The notes beneath the pieces were generated by a model, which was not told the origin of the DNA, made no database searches, and saw only the letters and a program-made list of their open reading frames with translations. From positions 1-64,000 of IMG/VR virus record IMGVR_UViG_2541047295_000015: DNA of 64,000 nt; one strand, given 5' to 3'. Shown here in pieces: positions 24,522 through 34,896 of the stretch. The number at the start of each line of letters is the position of its first letter. Position 1 is the first letter of the stretch. Made by a program: the position numbers and the translations under genes. Source of the DNA: a virus. Taxonomy: Duplodnaviria; Caudoviricetes.

Positions 24522-26219
24522 ATGGTTAAAGATGTTAAGTTGAAGAAGGGTATGTGGAGAGATGAAGTTAATAGATTGTTGAAGGAACATGATATTGATT
24601 TAGAGCTGGTTGATGAAATATATGGTGGAGCATCAGAAGTTAGTAATTGGAAGTGTAAATGTGGAGAAGTATTTACAAGAAGATGGAGTTATGTAAAAAA
24701 AACAGAATTAAATTCTTGCATAAAATGCGTGAAAAATAGTTTGTCAAAAGAGATATCTAATGTTAAAAGTAATAATATAAGAGAAGTTAAAATATTAAAA
24801 GGTATGGATAAAAAATATGTAAATAAAATATTAGAAAAATGGATTGAATTATTAGATGATACATATGAGGGTTCTAAGTATGTTCATAATTGGAAATGTA
24901 AATGTGGTCAAATATTTGAAAGAAAATATGAAGATATAAGAATAGGTAATAGTTATAAGTGTAAAAAATGTACAGCTATAATAAAAAATAGAGTTAATAA
25001 TATAAAAAATATTAAAATATTAAAAGGTATGAATAAAAAAGAGATAAATCTATTAATTAGAGAGTGGTTAATCTTAGAAGATGACATATACTTAGGATAT
25101 AAATATAAACATAATTGGAAGTGTAAATGTGGTCAAATATTTGAAAGGACTTGGGATTCAATAAAGAGAAATAATAGTATACAATGTAAAAAATGTACCT
25201 TTAATATAAAAAATAACCCTAACATTATAACTGAAGTATATTTAGAAAAAAATATGACAAAAGAAAATGTGAATAAACTAATTAGAGAGTGGTTAACTTT
25301 AGAAGATGATGTATTTTTAGAGCATCACTATAATCATAATTGGAAATGTAAATGTGGAAATACATTTAAAAGAACTTGGTCGAAGATAAAAGTCAGAGAA
25401 AATTATATTTGTGATGAATGTAGGTATAAATTACAAGAAGATAGATATAGATATGAAGTAGAAAAAGATGGTGAATACGAATATATAAAAAGTATTAGAA
25501 AAAATGAATACTTATCTAGTGGTGAAATTGTAAGAAGTAGCCCATATATAAAAATCAAACACAAATATTGTGATAGTATATATGAAATTCCAGCTGCTCA
25601 ATTTATTGATGTTGGAATTCGATGTTCAAATTGTTGTCAAAAACGTGAAAATTCTTTTGCCTATTATATTGAAGAAGAATTGAGTGAGCAATTAGAGACT
25701 TATTGGGATTTTAAAAGAAATAAAGTAAATCCACATTATATATATAAAAATTATATTGGTAATAAAAACAATAAAGAAAAAATTTGGATTAAATGCACTG
25801 AAAATAAGAATCATCCTTCATATCAAACTATGTCATATTCATTTATAAAAGGTTCTAGATGTCCAATTTGCTCTGAATCTAAGGGAGAAAAAAGAATTAG
25901 AAATTATTTTAATGGTAAAAACATTGAGTATCATATGCAACAAGAGTTTGATGAATTGTTTGGTTTGGGAGATAGAAATTTATCGTATGATTTTTATTTG
26001 CCTAATTATAAATTGCTGATAGAATATCAAGGTGAATTTCATGATGGAACAATAACTGGAAGTTATAAAGAATATTTTAATCTAGAGAAACAACAAGAAC
26101 ATGATAAAAGAAAAAGAGAGTATGCTAAAAATAATGGATATAAGTTATTAGAAATATGGTATTGGGATTTTGATAATATAGAAGAAATATTAGATAGAGA
26201 AATAAGAAATCTGCTTTAA
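24522..26219 (+). CDS. Free-standing putative homing endonuclease: repeated zinc-ribbon modules plus a Vsr/DUF559-like nuclease
   Basis: Four NWKCKCG..F.R....C..C repeats, further CxxC modules, C-terminal YDFYLP..LLIEYQGEFHD...HDKRK..YA...LLEIWY. Confidence 0.7.
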   Translation: MVKDVKLKKGMWRDEVNRLLKEHDIDLELVDEIYGGASEVSNWKCKCGEVFTRRWSYVKKTELNSCIKCVKNSLSKEISNVKSNNIREVKILKGMDKKYVNKILEKWIELLDDTYEGSKYVHNWKCKCGQIFERKYEDIRIGNSYKCKKCTAIIKNRVNNIKNIKILKGMNKKEINLLIREWLILEDDIYLGYKYKHNWKCKCGQIFERTWDSIKRNNSIQCKKCTFNIKNNPNIITEVYLEKNMTKENVNKLIREWLTLEDDVFLEHHYNHNWKCKCGNTFKRTWSKIKVRENYICDECRYKLQEDRYRYEVEKDGEYEYIKSIRKNEYLSSGEIVRSSPYIKIKHKYCDSIYEIPAAQFIDVGIRCSNCCQKRENSFAYYIEEELSEQLETYWDFKRNKVNPHYIYKNYIGNKNNKEKIWIKCTENKNHPSYQTMSYSFIKGSRCPICSESKGEKRIRNYFNGKNIEYHMQQEFDELFGLGDRNLSYDFYLPNYKLLIEYQGEFHDGTITGSYKEYFNLEKQQEHDKRKREYAKNNGYKLLEIWYWDFDNIEEILDREIRNLL

Positions 26220-27069: not shown

Positions 27070-28542
27070 ATGGCAGAAGAGTTTAAAATTAAGACCAGTA
27101 TTGAACTTGATGACAAAAAGGCTAGGCAACAATTAGCATCATTGAAGACATCTGCAAAAGAAAATAATATAAAATTAAATGTAGAAATGAACACATCATC
27201 TCTAAATAATTTGAAACAATTAGAGAACACATTAAAACAAATTAATAAACTTAGTAGAGAAACACAAAACGGATTATTTGGTGGAAAGGGTAGCTCGAAT
27301 GGAAATATAAATAAGTTAACTTCTCAATATGATAACTTTAAGAAGAAAATAGAGTCTACTCAAAGACAATTAAAGAAATTTACTCAGACAAACATTTTAG
27401 ATAACAAGCAAATAGGAGAAATTAACAAACTATCAGGAGAATTGAAAAGATTATCCAATATTAAATTAGATGGCTTAAATTCAAAAGCCTTATCGGATTT
27501 ATCAAATGTTCAGTCTAAATTTGCTAATATGAAAATACCAGATATGAATACGAAAATGGCTTCTCAATTTAAAACTCTTCAAAATGAAGCTGGTAAATTA
27601 GCAAATAAAATAGAATCATTAGGTAAATCTGGATACGCAGATACATCTAAACTACAAGGTTTATCAAACTCGTTAAAGTCAATTCAAAATTTAAATCTTA
27701 AAAATCTAACTTCTAACCAAATACAATCAGAAATACAAAAGCTAGAACAATTAAAAAATAAAGTTAAAGAAGTAGAAAATGCTACTAAAAACACTAAATT
27801 AGATGCTAAATTTAATATGAATCTTTCTAAAGTAATTTCAGATTTAAATAGGCTTAGACAAAAATGTGTAGAATTGGGTCAATCAACTGCTGGAATTGAT
27901 AAACTTGAAAAAGAATTAATGCAATTAAATGGTATGCCTCTAGGTCAAAAAGTAAAAGAATTAGATTCGATAAAAAGTAGACTAAGCAATATGAAATCTA
28001 ATTTCACAGGATTAGGAACTAGTGTAAAAACAACAAGTGGTTTCTTTAGTGACTTATATAATTCAATGAGAACTTATACTTTAGGTAATATGATAGGTAT
28101 GTCTATTACAAATGGTGTAAGAAATATAAAAACAACTATTGTTGAATTAGATAGTGCATTAAGAGATATGATGAAAGTAGCCCCTGATAATTTTGAAGGG
28201 ACAAGTGAGCAATTAAAGAATGTAAAAAATGAAGCAATTTCAATAGGGAAAGATACTGCTAGAGCATCAGAAGATATAATTCAAGGTGTATCTAAAGCTT
28301 TGCAGACAGGTGTAAAGTCTGTATCAGACAGTTTAAAGATAGCTAAACAATCAGCAGTTTTTGCAAATGTTGGTGATTTAGACCAAGAAACTGCCGATAA
28401 GTACTTAACTAGTGTCATGTCCGCTTATGGTGGAATGACAAAAGCATTAAAACCAATTAAAGATACTAGAGTTCAAATCAAAGGAATGAGTAAAGATTAT
28501 GATAATCTCACAAAGTTTCTTGATTTATCGAACTATGCAGGT
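27070..28542 (+). CDS. Tape measure protein, exon 1
   Basis: Coiled-coil N-terminus entering a TP901-type tape measure core (ELDSALRDMMKV...SEDIIQG...FANVGD); ends NYAG at a group I 5' splice site. Confidence 0.85.
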
Positions 28543-28800
28543 TAATAAAATAGCCCCTTTATATAGAAATATATAATTGAACTCAGAATATGCTGGAAAC
28601 TCCTTAGAGCCTTAATTAGTAAGTGTATTTGGAAACTTATACATCATCTGAAAATATTAAGGATTGGACAATCAGCAGAGATAGACCTAAGTTCAAAAAA
28701 AAGAATATGGTAAGCTCTCAACGACTACCAATGAGCATCCTAAATGGGTGATGGTATAGTCTATTCCCTTTTAAATATCGAGAAATCGAGGGTATAAAAG
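28543..28800 (+). ncRNA. Group I intron 1 in the tape measure gene (258 nt, no ORF)
   Basis: P1 ggU|ua...uaGcc with U-G wobble; P tgctggaaa, Q aatcagcag, R tcaacgacta, S ggtatagtct; terminal G at 28800. Confidence 0.9.
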
Positions 28801-28827
28801 AATAATTTTGCAATAACAACTGGCGAT
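28801..28827 (+). CDS. Tape measure protein, exon 2 (NNFAITTGD)
   Basis: 27 nt; completes the AGNNFAITT motif. Confidence 0.85.
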
Positions 28828-29132
28828 TAATTTTAGTCGCACTATATAGTAATATGTAGTTAAAAACTCCTTTAATTGCTGGGAACTCCTTAGAGCTAAC
28901 TAAACTACAACATAATTGGAAACGATAAATGTGAATGTTTAAAAATTAGTTGGATTGGACAATCAGCATCCAAGCTCCGTATGGGAGAAGGTTCAACGAC
29001 TATTATGTAGATTCAAGTGAATCGAAATGGGGAGCATCCTTAAAGGATGAAGATATAGTCTCGTCTTTATAGAGATATAAAGAAGTTCATAAGAGAACTG
29101 ATTAGGACTAACGAACCTAATTGAAGGTATCG
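28828..29132 (+). ncRNA. Group I intron 2 in the tape measure gene (305 nt, no ORF)
   Basis: P1 gcgaU|u...aGucgc; P aattgctggga, Q aatcagca, R ttcaacgacta, S gaagatatagtct; terminal G at 29132 (alternative in-frame G at 29126). Confidence 0.88.
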
Positions 29133-29273
29133 GTAGGAGCAGCGTTACAGCGAAGTGCGAGCATGTTATCATCAGCAGGTGTCTCTATGGAGGACTCTGT
29201 TGCATTGATAATTGGAGGAAATGAATCTGTACAAAATGCTGAAAAAGTAGGTACAGCACTCAAAACAATTGGT
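29133..29273 (+). CDS. Tape measure protein, exon 3 (VGAALQRSAS...KVGTALKTIG)
   Basis: 141 nt, 47 codons with no stop; typical tape measure core sequence. Confidence 0.88.
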
Positions 29274-29547
29274 TAATAAAATAGCCCCTTTATATAGTGA
29301 TATATAATTGAACTCAGAATATCAGGGAAAGTCCTTAGAGCTTTAATTACCAAGCATTAGAGAAATCAAAATGTGGCATTGCTAATCACAATGGTATGGT
29401 AATAAGATTAAAGATTGGATAATCCTGAGACACAGTCCTAAGTCAATTAATAAGGAAAGGTCGCAACGACTATCAATGAGCATCCTAAATGGATGATGGT
29501 ATAGTCTATTCCCATTTTTAAATATCTGGAAACAGAGGGTATTAAAG
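29274..29547 (+). ncRNA. Group I intron 3 in the tape measure gene (274 nt, no ORF), paralog of intron 1
   Basis: Same 5' end taataaaatagcccctttatatag as intron 1; P tcagggaaa / Q aatcctgag covary; R gcaacgacta, S ggtatagtct; terminal G at 29547. Confidence 0.9.
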
Positions 29548-32500
29548 ATAAACATGAGTGGTATCAAAGCTTCAGCAGATTCAGGGAAAATCAGTCTTAA
29601 CAAAACTGCTAAAACATTACAAGAAACAGCTAAAATAAATGTATTAGATAAACAAACCGGTCAAGTAAGAGATATGATGTCAATTTTAGATGAGTTGGCA
29701 GAAAAGTGGCATAGTGTTGGAGAAGATGCCTTAACTAAAAATCAAAAAAGTGGTATTGCTGAAAGTATTTCAGGCAAAAACCACATAAATACTTTCATGG
29801 CTATCATGGATAATTGGAATCAGGTAAAAAAATTCCAAAGTTCATGGCTTAGTGGAGAAGTGCTAGGCTCTGCTTCTGCGGAAAATGAAAGATTCATAAA
29901 TTCGGCAGAGGGAAAGATTATAAAGTTAAAAGAAAGTCTAAAACAATTAGTTACAGATACTATATCTACTGATATGTTTAAGACTAGTTTAGATGGATTA
30001 TCTGGAATCACTGGTGTTTTAAATGGGATAACTAAAGCAGCAGATAAAATGCACATTTCCCTTCCTGTAGCATTAGCAAGTTTATCAGCTTTATTTATGA
30101 CGATTAAAGCATTGGGTACTGGTAAACCAATCACGAATTTGTTTAGTGCTGGGAAAAGTGCATTTCAAAATAATAGAAAATCTGTTAAATTTAAAGATTT
30201 CGAAAAAGCAACGAAATTTACTAATCAATATACGAATGCCATAAATAAAAATACTAATGCTTCAAATAATAATGCTAAATCAAATGCTATTGTCAATAGA
30301 ACTATAAAAAGTCAAAAAGGTATTGTAGGGAATTATGTATCAACAACTAACAGTTTAAAAAAGGCTACAGCTAAAGAAATAAAAATAAATGAAGACAGAA
30401 CAAAGTCGTATGAAAAGTACAATCAAAAATTAAAAGTAGTATCTAAAAGTAGAAAAGATACAATCGGTGATGGACTTAGTAATATTGGTAAAGCATTTGC
30501 AGGAAGTAGCATTGTAAATTTTGGTAAGGGCATAGCAACTACAGTCGGAAATTCTTTAGTATTAACTGCTGCATTTGCAGGAGTAACTTTGTTGGCTCAA
30601 GCTATGGAAAATTATGCTAACAGGGAAGAAAATGCATATCAAGCTAGAAAGAAAAATATACAAGCTTCAAAACAACAAATCAATTCATATGAAAGCCAAA
30701 AAACTCAATTACAAGCACTTGCAGAAGAATATGATAATTTATCTAAAAAAGAAAATAAGTCTAAAGAAGATAATAATAGATTAAATGAACTAAAACAACA
30801 GATTGGAAAAATAAAACCAGATTCAGTTATAGGAACAGATGAAAATGGCATACCTATTTTAAAAGGTCAGGTCACTGACTTAATTGCTGAAATAGACAGA
30901 GCTATTAATGCAAAAGAAAGATTGATGTCCTATGATAAACATGACAATGCAGAAACAGCTGCTAAAAAATTAAATTCTCCAAGTAAAAATCCAAATAAAA
31001 CTTTGGAAGAAAGAATGAGAGAAAGTGAAACTGGTAAGCTTGTAAAAATAGAAGAAGATTATACAGCAGAAGTTGAAAAGAATAAAAAAAGACAAGAAAA
31101 AGCAATAGAAAAATATAATAATTCAACTGGCAGAGCAAGAGATAAAGCTAGAAATGAATTAATGTCAGCAAAAGCAGAAGAAGAGAAGATTTATTTCAAG
31201 TATGATGAAATGTATAGAAATCAAGTTAATAAGATTCAAGGCTATTCAAAAGAAATAGGCGATGGAATTTTCTCTAACATTAAGAATAAAACTCTTTACA
31301 GTGGATTAGAAGGAAATGATAAGTCTAATTTTGCTGGACTTGAGAGTTTATTTGATTTTAGTGAGGTTACACCAGATACTTTAGTAGACACAGAACAAGC
31401 AGTTAATAAATTACTTACTGCTGTTAGAAGTGGAAAAGTTGATGTAGGAGATTTATCTAAAACTCTTAAAGATGCCAATGAAGAATTTGCTAGAACACAA
31501 GATATAGAGAAATATAATCAAACAATAGATAAAACAGCTAAGAGCATAGCTAAAGCGACTAATACAGATGTTAATATATGGGAAAATTTATTTGGTCAAG
31601 TTAATCCTAATGGTATTAAGGATATGACATCAATAAATACATTATTAGCGAAGTTTGGTAAGACAAAATTAGATTTGGCCAATGGTGATGAATTTGCAAT
31701 GCAACTTCAAAATCAATTTGATAGCATACAAAACATCTTAGATACAACAACAATAACTGGAGATGTGAAAGTTGATGCAAATATATTAACTGACATTAAA
31801 AATACTAAGGAAGTTCCTAGCCAAGTTAAAGGTATGATAGATTCTTTATTAGGAACAGGGGCAAGTTCCACTGATGTATTGAAGTTCACAATGGATGTTT
31901 TAATGGAGTTACAAACTGGTGACCCAGATATAACTAAACTTCAAAATGACTTAGATAACAAATTTGGAAAAGGTACGTTTACCATAACCCCAGAAATACT
32001 TTTAAGTGATGATTCAGGTCAAGCTAATGTAAATCAAATAATAGATAGTTTAAAACAAAAGTATGAAGAAGTGCCAAAAAAGGTTATTACAATAATTCAA
32101 GCAAATCCTACCACAACATTACAAGAAGCTGATTCATTAAAACAAATGTATGATAGATTTCCAAAAGAAATAAATACTATCATAGAACAAAAGGGTGCAG
32201 ATGAGGGTGGCAAAAAGGTATTAGAGTTAACTTCTAAATATAAGAAGATACCATCTAAGCTTAGAACTAGTTTAGAAACAGATGGTGTTGGACTGGAAAA
32301 AGCTGTACAAATCTCAGAAATATACAATAAAATACCACCAGAACTAAAGACATACCTATTAGCTGATGGGAAAGATGCTTTATATAATGCTACAAGTTTA
32401 AAAGATGCATTAGAACATATCCCGAAAGAGAAAATAACTGAAATATATTTAAATAAAAATGAAAATAACTTTGGGATACAAGATCTAATAACCTCATTAG

Positions 32501-34896
32501 ATAAAATTCCTATGAGTAAAGAAGTAAGAATTGACATCTATAAAGCGTTAACAGAAGGGGATATAGACGCTCTAGGTAAAGCCATTGAAAGCCTACCACC
32601 AGATAAAAGAGTAGAAGTAATTGCCGAAATAGAAAAAGCTAAAGATGATATTAAAACTATTAGTTCTTCTGAAATAGCAAATAAAATTTTTACTATAGAG
32701 GTTAAGGATTTAGCATCAGATACTATTGAGTGGATTCAAAATAAGCTAAAAGAAATAAAGGGTGACAAAGATAAAAAAGACCCTGTCAAAGATGCGAAAA
32801 ATTCTACTGAAGAAGCTATAGGAAAATCTTCAAGCAATAAAAATCCTTTAAAATCAAAAGTAAAAGAAGCTAATGATGTAGTTGACCATATATTAAATAC
32901 TCCTGTTACAAAAGAAATTAAACTACAGGTAGAAAATAGAGACTTTAAAAAACAATTAGATTCAATTACACAACTTGATGGTAGGGATGAAGTAAAATTA
33001 AAACTTGAATCTTCAGGTGTGAATATAGAACAGGTAGGAGTATTTTTAGATACAATAAAGAATCTCCCTACAAGTTCAACATTTACAAATAAATTTATAG
33101 TTGATAATGTAGATAGTTTAAAAGGATTAAAAGATTATCAAGCTGTAGTTGAATGGATTAAAAATAATCCTACAATGGCAATGGACTATGATATCAATAT
33201 AAATAATTTAGAAAACTTTGATGAGCTAAAAGAAGTCTATACTAGTTTAGATACAAAAGAGAAAAAACAAGTATTTGCGGAATTTGTAATTAACAATCCA
33301 AATAAATTAGAAGAATTTCAAGAATTATATAGTAAGACTCCCGAAGATACTAAAACTACTGTTATTAATTTTGCTGTTGAAAATGCAGATAAATTAAGAA
33401 GTGCAATTGATTTATATAATACTACACCAGAAGAGCAAAAAGATAAAGTTTTAAATTTTATATTGAATAATCCAGATAAGTTATATTTAATTCAAAGTCT
33501 TTATGATGACTTTCCTGATAATAAAGATATTATAGCCAACCTTATAGTAAATAATCCAGAAGCATTAGATGAGGTTGAGAAATTAAATGCTTTAGATTTA
33601 AATAAAGATGTAAAAATAAACATAATAAAATCTCTTGCAAATGGAGATATTGATTCATTAGTTGAGGAAATAGATAAATTGCCTCCTGATAAACAAGTTG
33701 AAGTAATTGCAGCGGTAGAAGGAGCTATTGCTGGGATAGATAGTGTTGATAAAAAAACACTAAGTCCTAAATGGGCTAAATTAAAAGCAGATGCAACTGA
33801 CGCAAATAATAAAATCAACCAAACTGAGAATAAAAAGATAAGCGACAAAAGCTTCAATATTATAGGTCATGTTAGTATAATTTCAAAAGTAACAAGTGGA
33901 CTTGTTGACCTTGCTCATAATGCTGGGCTTGGTGGAGGAAAGAGTGATAGGAAAAGTGTACAATCCATAAATTCTATAGAAACTCCACAACCAATTCCAG
34001 CAAATCTATCCCAACCTAGAACATCAGAACCAGTACCAATAAGTGACGAAACTCCTGTAACAAAGCCATCCTTATTCTCAAGAGCAGTATCAAGAGCCAC
34101 GGCACCGATAAAGGCTCTTAAAACATTAACTCAAGACACTCCAATAGATAAAAATTTTGATGCTATTATAAAATATGAAATAGAGTTATTTAAAGAATTA
34201 GAGAACCAACTTTCAAAAGTAACAAATGAACTATCATTGCTAGATAAGCAAATGAAAAATGCTACTAATGAGCAGAAACTCAATTATCTTAAAAAACAAA
34301 ATGAACTATATAAAGAGCAGGAAAGACTTTTAAATAGAAAAGAAGCTCTTACAAAAGATGAAGCAAATAGATTTAAAAAGGTATTGAGTGATAAAGGTTT
34401 CAAGTTTAATTCTGATGGAAACATGACAAATTATGAAGAGTTATCTATAAAAAAAGAAAAAGAATTAGCTAAACTTGAAGCAGAGGCAAATAAAGAGAAA
34501 GCATCTGATAAGACTAAGAAGAAATATGAAGATGCAAAAAAAGCTTGGGATGAAACTAAGAAATATCGTGATGAATATTTAGATATCATGTTTACTGAAC
34601 TACCAAAAGTAGTTGAAGAAAAACAAGAAGTGGTAAATGCTACAAAAGATATAGAAAAAGCAGAGCGAGATTTAAGAAATGAGGCTTGGAAGCTACATAA
34701 AGAATCTGAATGGACATCTATGAATAGAGATGTTGAAGAAGTTAATAATCAACTTGAATTGTTAGATGTACTAATGGGGAATGCCTTTGGTGTTGAAAAA
34801 AATGATTTACTTCAACAGAAACTAGATTTATTAGAAAAACAGAAAAAAGAAATGAGTGAAACTACGTCTTACATGAAACAAGTCAAAATGAAATAA
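29548..34896 (+). CDS. Tape measure protein, exon 4
   Basis: INMSGIK... in frame from 29548; ILDELAEKW...ISGKNHINTF core; long helical repeats. Confidence 0.85.
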   Translation: MNMSGIKASADSGKISLNKTAKTLQETAKINVLDKQTGQVRDMMSILDELAEKWHSVGEDALTKNQKSGIAESISGKNHINTFMAIMDNWNQVKKFQSSWLSGEVLGSASAENERFINSAEGKIIKLKESLKQLVTDTISTDMFKTSLDGLSGITGVLNGITKAADKMHISLPVALASLSALFMTIKALGTGKPITNLFSAGKSAFQNNRKSVKFKDFEKATKFTNQYTNAINKNTNASNNNAKSNAIVNRTIKSQKGIVGNYVSTTNSLKKATAKEIKINEDRTKSYEKYNQKLKVVSKSRKDTIGDGLSNIGKAFAGSSIVNFGKGIATTVGNSLVLTAAFAGVTLLAQAMENYANREENAYQARKKNIQASKQQINSYESQKTQLQALAEEYDNLSKKENKSKEDNNRLNELKQQIGKIKPDSVIGTDENGIPILKGQVTDLIAEIDRAINAKERLMSYDKHDNAETAAKKLNSPSKNPNKTLEERMRESETGKLVKIEEDYTAEVEKNKKRQEKAIEKYNNSTGRARDKARNELMSAKAEEEKIYFKYDEMYRNQVNKIQGYSKEIGDGIFSNIKNKTLYSGLEGNDKSNFAGLESLFDFSEVTPDTLVDTEQAVNKLLTAVRSGKVDVGDLSKTLKDANEEFARTQDIEKYNQTIDKTAKSIAKATNTDVNIWENLFGQVNPNGIKDMTSINTLLAKFGKTKLDLANGDEFAMQLQNQFDSIQNILDTTTITGDVKVDANILTDIKNTKEVPSQVKGMIDSLLGTGASSTDVLKFTMDVLMELQTGDPDITKLQNDLDNKFGKGTFTITPEILLSDDSGQANVNQIIDSLKQKYEEVPKKVITIIQANPTTTLQEADSLKQMYDRFPKEINTIIEQKGADEGGKKVLELTSKYKKIPSKLRTSLETDGVGLEKAVQISEIYNKIPPELKTYLLADGKDALYNATSLKDALEHIPKEKITEIYLNKNENNFGIQDLITSLDKIPMSKEVRIDIYKALTEGDIDALGKAIESLPPDKRVEVIAEIEKAKDDIKTISSSEIANKIFTIEVKDLASDTIEWIQNKLKEIKGDKDKKDPVKDAKNSTEEAIGKSSSNKNPLKSKVKEANDVVDHILNTPVTKEIKLQVENRDFKKQLDSITQLDGRDEVKLKLESSGVNIEQVGVFLDTIKNLPTSSTFTNKFIVDNVDSLKGLKDYQAVVEWIKNNPTMAMDYDININNLENFDELKEVYTSLDTKEKKQVFAEFVINNPNKLEEFQELYSKTPEDTKTTVINFAVENADKLRSAIDLYNTTPEEQKDKVLNFILNNPDKLYLIQSLYDDFPDNKDIIANLIVNNPEALDEVEKLNALDLNKDVKINIIKSLANGDIDSLVEEIDKLPPDKQVEVIAAVEGAIAGIDSVDKKTLSPKWAKLKADATDANNKINQTENKKISDKSFNIIGHVSIISKVTSGLVDLAHNAGLGGGKSDRKSVQSINSIETPQPIPANLSQPRTSEPVPISDETPVTKPSLFSRAVSRATAPIKALKTLTQDTPIDKNFDAIIKYEIELFKELENQLSKVTNELSLLDKQMKNATNEQKLNYLKKQNELYKEQERLLNRKEALTKDEANRFKKVLSDKGFKFNSDGNMTNYEELSIKKEKELAKLEAEANKEKASDKTKKKYEDAKKAWDETKKYRDEYLDIMFTELPKVVEEKQEVVNATKDIEKAERDLRNEAWKLHKESEWTSMNRDVEEVNNQLELLDVLMGNAFGVEKNDLLQQKLDLLEKQKKEMSETTSYMKQVKMK

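Follow-up and report, generated by a model that had tools for sequence, protein, structure and literature searches.

The tail tape-measure (TMP) gene of a Clostridioides difficile phage of the phiCD211/phiCDIF1296T type is interrupted by three small group I introns, and the relationship and spread of these introns are the subject of the present analysis. The gene lies at positions 27070-34896 on the plus strand of the window, by which we mean the whole stretch of DNA analyzed (64,000 nucleotides, positions 1 to 64,000 of the IMG/VR virus record IMGVR_UViG_2541047295_000015). The window covers the first 64 kb of a 118.9-kb contig in a 4.76-Mb genome and is 92% identical to the large phages AR1086-1, phiCDIF1296T and phiCD211. 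The exons and introns of the gene are laid out as follows:

27070..28542, plus strand: TMP exon 1, 491 codons, the last of which is a glycine GGT; the open reading frame (ORF) 27070-28545 is closed by the TAA with which intron 1 begins
28543..28800, plus strand: intron 1, group I, lineage A, site S1, 258 nt, without an ORF
28801..28827, plus strand: micro-exon 2, 27 nt encoding NNFAITTGD, a 100% match to the uninterrupted coding sequence of relatives that are empty there
28828..29132, plus strand: intron 2, group I, lineage B, site S2, 305 nt, with a GCGAU/GUCGC P1 helix
29133..29273, plus strand: exon 3, 141 nt or 47 codons, the last of which is GGT; uninterrupted where the flanking sites are empty
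29274..29547, plus strand: intron 3, group I, lineage A, site S3, 274 nt, paralogue of intron 1
29548..34896, plus strand: TMP exon 4, 1782 codons and a stop, in a frame continuous with the ORF 29554-34896

When joined, the four exons form 2330 codons with a single stop at the end, and all three junctions fall between codons (phase 0), as the sequence-only reading had stated. Because relatives with empty sites carry identical flanking exons, the intron borders can be fixed to the base: exon 1 runs straight into exon 2 in AR1086-1, phiCD211 and others, intron 1 is precisely missing from 10 related alleles with identical flanks, and site S2, which holds intron 2 in the window, is empty in 11. 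In all three introns the exon base preceding the junction is a T and the last intron base is a G. Each intron opens with an in-frame TAA, so that unspliced RNA would yield just a 491-residue N-terminal piece, and none contains a homing endonuclease ORF, the longest same-strand (plus) ORFs spanning 42 and 40 codons. The interrupted region is covered by the PhageMin_Tail domain (PF10145, E 2e-20, as detected by Pfam in an intron-less relative), with exons 2 and 3 inside the domain. Comparison with these uninterrupted alleles shows that the three ORF-less, putatively self-splicing ribozymes would have to be spliced out to restore the 2330-codon frame.

The group I assignment draws on both covariance-model matches and an explicit secondary structure. 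In a local scan with the Rfam model RF00028, whose gathering score is 50 bits, the three introns are matched at 28533-28782 (48.8 bits, E 5e-11), 28817-29082 (90.2 bits) and 29265-29528 (46.7 bits, E 2e-10), with intron 2 above the gathering score. By hand we wrote a structure running from P1 to P9 with a P3/P7 pseudoknot (57 pairs in 11 helices) for nine lineage-A introns, and found that 96.7% of its cells pair, as opposed to 33-43% when the partners are slid. Both partners have changed in twelve pairs: P4 and the P9 hairpin contribute three each, P2 and P8 two each, and P5a and P6a one each. The observed covariation score was reached by none of 500 shuffles. The compensatory changes that had been read from the sequence in the P/Q pairing are borne out, with three of the six pairs of P4, as this helix is now called, exchanged on both strands. 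P3 and P7 are invariant in lineage A and hence contribute no covariation, and the U-G pair in P1 is invariant in nine of nine introns. Given these compensatory base-pair changes, introns 1 and 3 both appear to be kept as working ribozymes by selection. Rfam run at the gathering threshold over the entire 64-kb window returned no match, despite the 90-bit score of intron 2 in the local scan, and a 23-kb scan of three relatives was likewise empty; these empty long-range scans reflect filter losses and not absence, as the speed filters hide AT-rich introns.

Introns 1 and 3 are closely related to each other and distinct from intron 2. Both follow an in-frame GGT codon (28540-28542 and 29271-29273), and their first 24 bases, TAATAAAATAGCCCCTTTATATAG, are the same, so that the donors are indeed identical and the second copy does sit at another GGT site. 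Their P1 helices, identical from -3 to +24, consist of the same 5 bp, in which exon GGU plus UA is paired with UAGCC (hereafter, GGU/GCC P1). The shared P7-P9 region is equally verified by alignment: a 38-nt string is common to intron 1 (28731-28768) and intron 3 (29476-29513) with a single mismatch. A blastn search of intron 1 against the whole 4.76-Mb genome retrieved intron 3 at E = 7e-47 (75% identity over 280 columns); the host genome yielded no other copy of either intron, nor any of lineages C and C'. Intron 2, by comparison, has merely 53-57% column identity to either of the other two. In a phylogenetic tree, the introns at S1 and S3 form one clade of two sister groups with 99/100 support, and intron 2 falls into a separate lineage, in agreement with its earlier assignment to a different descent. 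S1 orthologues of intron 1 in other phages are 93-99% identical to it, and intron 3 is 96% identical to the phiCD211 intron annotated as Intron_gpI. Alignment and tree thus confirm introns 1 and 3 as true paralogues that descend from one lineage-A ancestor.

To place the three introns in the context of their relatives, we compared about 25 alleles, comprising four phage records, thirteen IMG/VR contigs, a C. difficile plasmid record and metagenome contigs, plus the IMG/VR contig L034, which was found by a lineage-A pattern scan. Nine insertion sites used by four intron lineages lie in a 1.45-kb stretch (612 nt of it coding) within the conserved PhageMin_Tail domain. The sites, all on the plus strand and given as window positions of the exon junctions, are as follows:

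28374/28375, S0: after GGT, phase 0; empty in the window; a 299-nt lineage-C insert in L023-L026 and L028
28542/28801, S1: after GGT, phase 0; lineage A; holds intron 1
28827/29133, S2: after GCGAT, phase 0; lineage B; holds intron 2
29240/29241, S2b: after GCT, phase 0; empty in the window; a 288-nt lineage-C' intron in phiCD211, L021-L024 and L029
29252/29253, S2c: after GGT, phase 0; empty in the window; a lineage-A intron in L034
29273/29548, S3: after GGT, phase 0; lineage A; holds intron 3
29768/29769, S4: after GCGAT, phase 2; empty in the window; lineage B in AR1086-1, L018-L020, L025, L026, L028 and L029
29772/29773, S4': after GCT, phase 0; empty in the window; lineage C' in pCD1602_4 and L034
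29825/29826, S5: after GGT, phase 2; empty in the window; a 315-nt lineage-C insert in L023-L026, L028 and L029

Filled and empty alleles have identical flanks. The window is occupied at S1, S2 and S3, L017 at S1 and S2, AR1086-1 and three others at S4 alone, and phiCD211 and phiCDIF1296T at S2b and S3, while L023, L024 and L044 hold six introns each. The metagenome contig L045 also shows six introns and breaks exactly at S0, and it probably carries seven. Intron number per allele ranges from one to six in at least 10 occupancy patterns, most relatives are without one of the two lineage-A paralogues, and no intron-free TMP allele was found among the approximately 25 examined. Intron content therefore varies strongly across relatives; the sequence-only reading had counted a lack of such variation against itself.

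Several local sequence features accompany this variation. At positions 29761-29769, the exon of all S4-filled alleles ends in GAAGCGAT, paired with the guide GUCGC, whereas the window reads GAAAGTAT (AGTAT versus GCGAT at S4) and L023 and L024 read GAAGCAAT; with its own version of the stretch, the empty S4 of the window could not form that P1. The fourth intron base (28546, 28831 and 29277) differs between groups of alleles, with TAAT starting all three window introns and both L017 introns and TAAC starting the S1, S2 and S3 introns of L023-L026, phiCD211 and L029, so that the same TAAT/TAAC change occurs at the matching loop position in two unrelated lineages. Along 28374-29826 the lineages follow one another as C, A, B, C', A, A, B, C' and C; over the seven main-group sites this order is strictly periodic, with a post hoc chance of 2 in 210, although the sites are spaced differently and the protein contains no repeat. 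Segmental duplication of an exon together with an intron was considered as a candidate origin of the doubled sites and rejected, as the two halves share no protein repeat and the site spacings are 166/27/108 in one and 33/221/4 nt in the other.

Each lineage has a constant exon end, namely GGT for A and C, GCGAT for B and GCT for C', and between C (GGU/GCC) and C' (GCU/GGC) P1 covaries with the exon. Among copies at the same site identity is 93-100%, while between sites it drops to 75-80% for S1/S3, 73-77% for S2/S4 and 75-81% for S0/S5, so that within-site exceeds between-site identity in all three pairs; S2b is more remote from S0/S5, at 52-56%. In a divergent subgroup represented by pCD1602_4, an extra lineage-A intron is found at S2c and an S2b-type intron at S4'. 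The gap between 73-81% identity across sites and 93-100% within them indicates that the copying events are older than the present alleles, which were then reassorted by recombination, gain and loss into the current occupancy patterns.

The paralogues have also left traces of exchange with each other. L027 (4406-4704) carries a single intron whose 5' half is of the S0 type and whose 3' half is of the S5 type, with one crossover within 50 identical bases, and which links the 5' exon of S0 with the 3' exon of S5; the allele lacks 612 nt of coding sequence, and the passage from phase 0 to phase 2 causes a frameshift. This allele represents either a recombination deletion or an assembly collapse across the 50-nt identity. 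Mosaic introns that combine S1-type with S3-type segments occur at S1 in pCD1602_4 and at S2c in L034. Outside P7-P8, intron 3 of the window departs from its orthologues at 4 of 232 positions, but inside at 7-8 of 48, where it matches intron 1 instead (2 differences in 47; Fisher p = 3-6e-4), which suggests that the long P7-P9 identity is in part a conversion patch special to the window allele. Judging from these mosaic and patched alleles, paralogous introns are shown to exchange sequence at the DNA level. The sequence-only reading had further predicted that recombination between introns 1 and 3 would delete 731 bp in frame; the figure itself is correct (29274 minus 28543) and traces of recombination between copies are found in the S0/S5 chimera and the intron 3 patch, but no allele lacks exons 2 and 3 in frame.

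We consider it roughly 70% probable that the introns are group I paralogues that spread within the TMP gene by guide-directed copying, most simply by reverse splicing. According to this model, the internal guide sequence of an intron would pick the new site, the excised intron would reverse-splice into a nearby GGU, GCGAU or GCU of the same transcript, and copying back to DNA followed by recombination would fix the insertion; spread from phage to phage at a given site would need only homologous recombination in the flanking exons. Reverse splicing is favored because insertion is exact, the introns contain no internal endonuclease, and the sites share only the guide complement in four separate lineages. 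Also in favor of the proposal, the four occupied GGT sites are clustered: of the 63 GGT triplets in the gene, 10 lie in a 640-nt hot stretch, and all four sites belong to these 10 (p = 3.5e-4). The only requirement of reverse splicing is a short stretch that matches the guide sequence, and the presence of related introns at two sites in a single gene has been regarded as the best circumstantial evidence for this route (PMC3984707; PMC2504315), with direct proof lacking (PMC3984707). It thus fits the present data, without being proven by them, as the most economical account of the spread. In a bolder version, on balance doubtful in our view, ORF-less introns would hop repeatedly over short range by reverse splicing into their own transcript, with filled, empty, chimeric and converted alleles still in circulation.

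Several observations weigh against the proposal. Introns 1 (48.8 bits) and 3 (46.7 bits) score just below the RF00028 gathering score, with full-length alignments (1-253), and lineage C escapes the model altogether, its group I status drawing on covariation and on 72-73% identity to inserts in AR9, PBS1 and phiR1-37. Splicing itself is predicted from structure, covariation and intact intron-less alleles. No reverse transcriptase (PF00078) was found at E <= 1e-5 in the 99.98%-complete genome. An exon-guide match is required for splicing by any route of arrival, so that the shared GGU could reflect survivorship, and three bases cannot explain why GGTs in the hot region alone are used. Finally, a homing-endonuclease-like gene is found 850 bp upstream of the TMP gene:

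24522..26219, plus strand: free-standing HNH/homing-endonuclease-like gene (phrog_559 'HNH endonuclease' 4.9e-62; phrog_9084 'homing endonuclease' 1e-22), with a treble-clef zinc finger, PF14311

The last point raises the possibility of ectopic homing at the DNA level, in which a free-standing endonuclease, for example the product of this gene, would cut the TMP gene near the new sites and a paralogous intron would serve to repair the break, with hardly any exon homology involved and only P1-competent insertions surviving. Illegitimate break repair has been documented as a route, as has the collaborative homing of introns without an ORF (PMC3984707), the paralogues do exchange at the DNA level, and no reverse transcriptase was found in the genome. 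The 24522-26219 gene is a possible helper of intron spread. We nevertheless consider this route unlikely. The endonuclease ORF is missing from the 3.1 kb upstream of TMP in relatives with up to six introns, being seen only at the edge of L025, while phiCD211 has an antirepressor gene in its place, and no link between the gene and intron load was found among the relatives. In addition, paralogous sites have only 3-5 nt in common, and all insertions are base-exact, which is seldom expected from microhomology-driven break repair.

Guide-directed copying within the gene also has to be weighed against the view that no intragenic copying took place and that introns 1 and 3 arrived independently from related introns of other phages. 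Every lineage does have relatives elsewhere, those of A in C. botulinum phage c-st, those of C in AR9, PBS1 and phiR1-37, and those of B in Pseudomonas phages and the host IStron ribozyme, and the lineage-A P7-P8 core recurs in an nrdD intron from a metagenome. These outside relatives are, however, far more distant (at most 78% identity over 60% of the length) than the paralogues are from each other, the sister groups at S1 and S3 have identical P1 and guide, and doubling has occurred in all four lineages inside one 1.45-kb stretch, all of which renders separate arrival very improbable. In viral, genome and metagenome collections, the lineage-A P7-P3'-P8-P7' signature is confined to phiCD211-like TMP genes, bar two weak exceptions on metagenome contigs L041 and L043, the former lying in a phage nrdD gene.

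The sequence-only reading had proposed that skipping of exons could give in-frame isoforms lacking 9, 47 or 56 residues, sizes that are correct for the exons concerned. Since introns 1 and 3 have the same P1, some ligation of exon 1 with exon 4 is chemically plausible. Seven of the nine family sites are in phase 0 (binomial p = 0.008), S4 and S5 being in phase 2, and the bias arises because the introns target GGU and GCU, which in the TMP gene are mostly in-frame codons (51 of 63 GGT triplets, or 81%, and 67 of 83 GCT). Phase 0 is therefore expected from codon usage and does not stand as a sign of design for skipping. That the arrangement is an adaptation for alternative splicing is the least credible of the explanations considered, for although the identical P1, the phase-0 junctions of the window and the group I exon skipping reported for Twort orf142 and a SIOphi gene (PMC11878797) speak for it, every allele retains exons 2 and 3, which fall within PF10145, the sole deletion allele (L027) is frameshifted, the phase has its source in codon usage with two sites in phase 2, and one of the two paralogues is absent from most relatives. 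Exon skipping would probably be a by-product rather than a function.

Paralogous TMP introns are already known from Bacillus cereus-group prophages, where the group I introns TMP-IVS1, IVS2 and IVS3a/b occupy three TMP sites (Tourasse and Kolsto 2008, PMC2504315), and the phiCD211-like case is a rich and unusually informative new example. In B. cereus, the TMP-IVS1 and IVS2 paralogues are 80% identical to each other and 92-99% within a site, with presence varying by strain (PMC2504315), so that the two systems share ORF-less or homing endonuclease gene-poor introns at several sites of a prophage TMP gene and nearly the same identity figures. They differ in that the B. cereus paralogues have different P1 helices and guides, which was read as site adaptation, whereas those of C. 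difficile keep both P1 and exon end, and in that C. difficile presents nine sites, four lineages and chimeric and converted introns, as opposed to three sites. In Staphylococcus phage Twort, the tail tube gene orf142 is split by three group I introns and exon skipping has been demonstrated experimentally (Landthaler and Shub 1999, as cited in PMC11878797); both cases involve a late tail gene that has short internal exons and three small group I introns, but gene and host are different, and in the window an identical P1 in introns 1 and 3 gives the precondition for skipping. For the Bastillevirinae phage SIOphi, one intron's 5' splice site was observed to be joined to the 3' site of the following one in vitro (PMC11878797). 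Its genes are similarly split by two or three group I introns, yet these reside in replication and packaging genes and mostly carry endonuclease genes, unlike the ORF-less introns in the structural gene described here. Group I introns of ribosomal DNA likewise occur as related copies at several sites of one gene with only the guide complement shared (PMC3984707), there in eukaryotic rRNA genes and here in a protein-coding gene of a phage, of which empty and filled alleles both circulate.

The means by which group I introns without an ORF arrive at new sites have long been an open question, with no direct natural evidence for reverse splicing (PMC3984707). The phiCD211-like phages, which are inducible and in part infectious, offer many natural before-and-after alleles together with paralogues of identical splice-site recognition, and this combination opens transposition and exon skipping to simple RNA experiments. 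Were the tentative reading of repeated hopping true, they would provide the first bacterial or phage system in which group I transposition and cross-splicing between identical-guide paralogues can be measured directly, on the basis of a cultivable host-phage pair.

The introns also bear on annotation. Public C. difficile phage records split TMP into two coding sequences, a 'minor tail protein' and a 'tape measure', the phiCDIF1296T record places a transcription terminator inside the S2b intron, and one GenBank record marks a single Intron_gpI, just one of the two introns of phiCD211 (loci of these annotations: L001:1501-3384; L002:3109-3396; L004:3225-3245). A text search found no paper on introns in phiCD211-like phages, although the phiCD211 paper (Garneau et al. 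2018) may mention them. Gene calls, protein clustering and tail-length estimates for the group will be wrong unless the introns are removed.

Outside the TMP gene, the L041 match corresponds to a group I intron (L041:3856-4129, 29.7 bits) in a split nrdD; over 61 nt, the P7-P8 core of this intron has 85% identity to lineage A. For the core of intron 2 (28933-29061), the identity to introns from the YH6/LP14 group of Pseudomonas phages is 81% across about 130 nt, and one such intron is annotated as Intron_gpI. Intron 2 further has three segments of about 80% identity in common with some 22 IStron-like copies in the host genome, the C. difficile IStron being a group I ribozyme combined with an IS605-type element; unlike the IStron, intron 2 is without a transposase part and is precisely placed in a coding frame. 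At positions 333-539 of the window, the phage contig opens with the C-terminal part of a TnpB-like gene, and its other end, beyond the window (C28:118438-118807), is a group I ribozyme, a feature shared by some 22 further contig ends of the genome. One IStron copy, which broke the assembly, seems to be carried by the phage genome itself.

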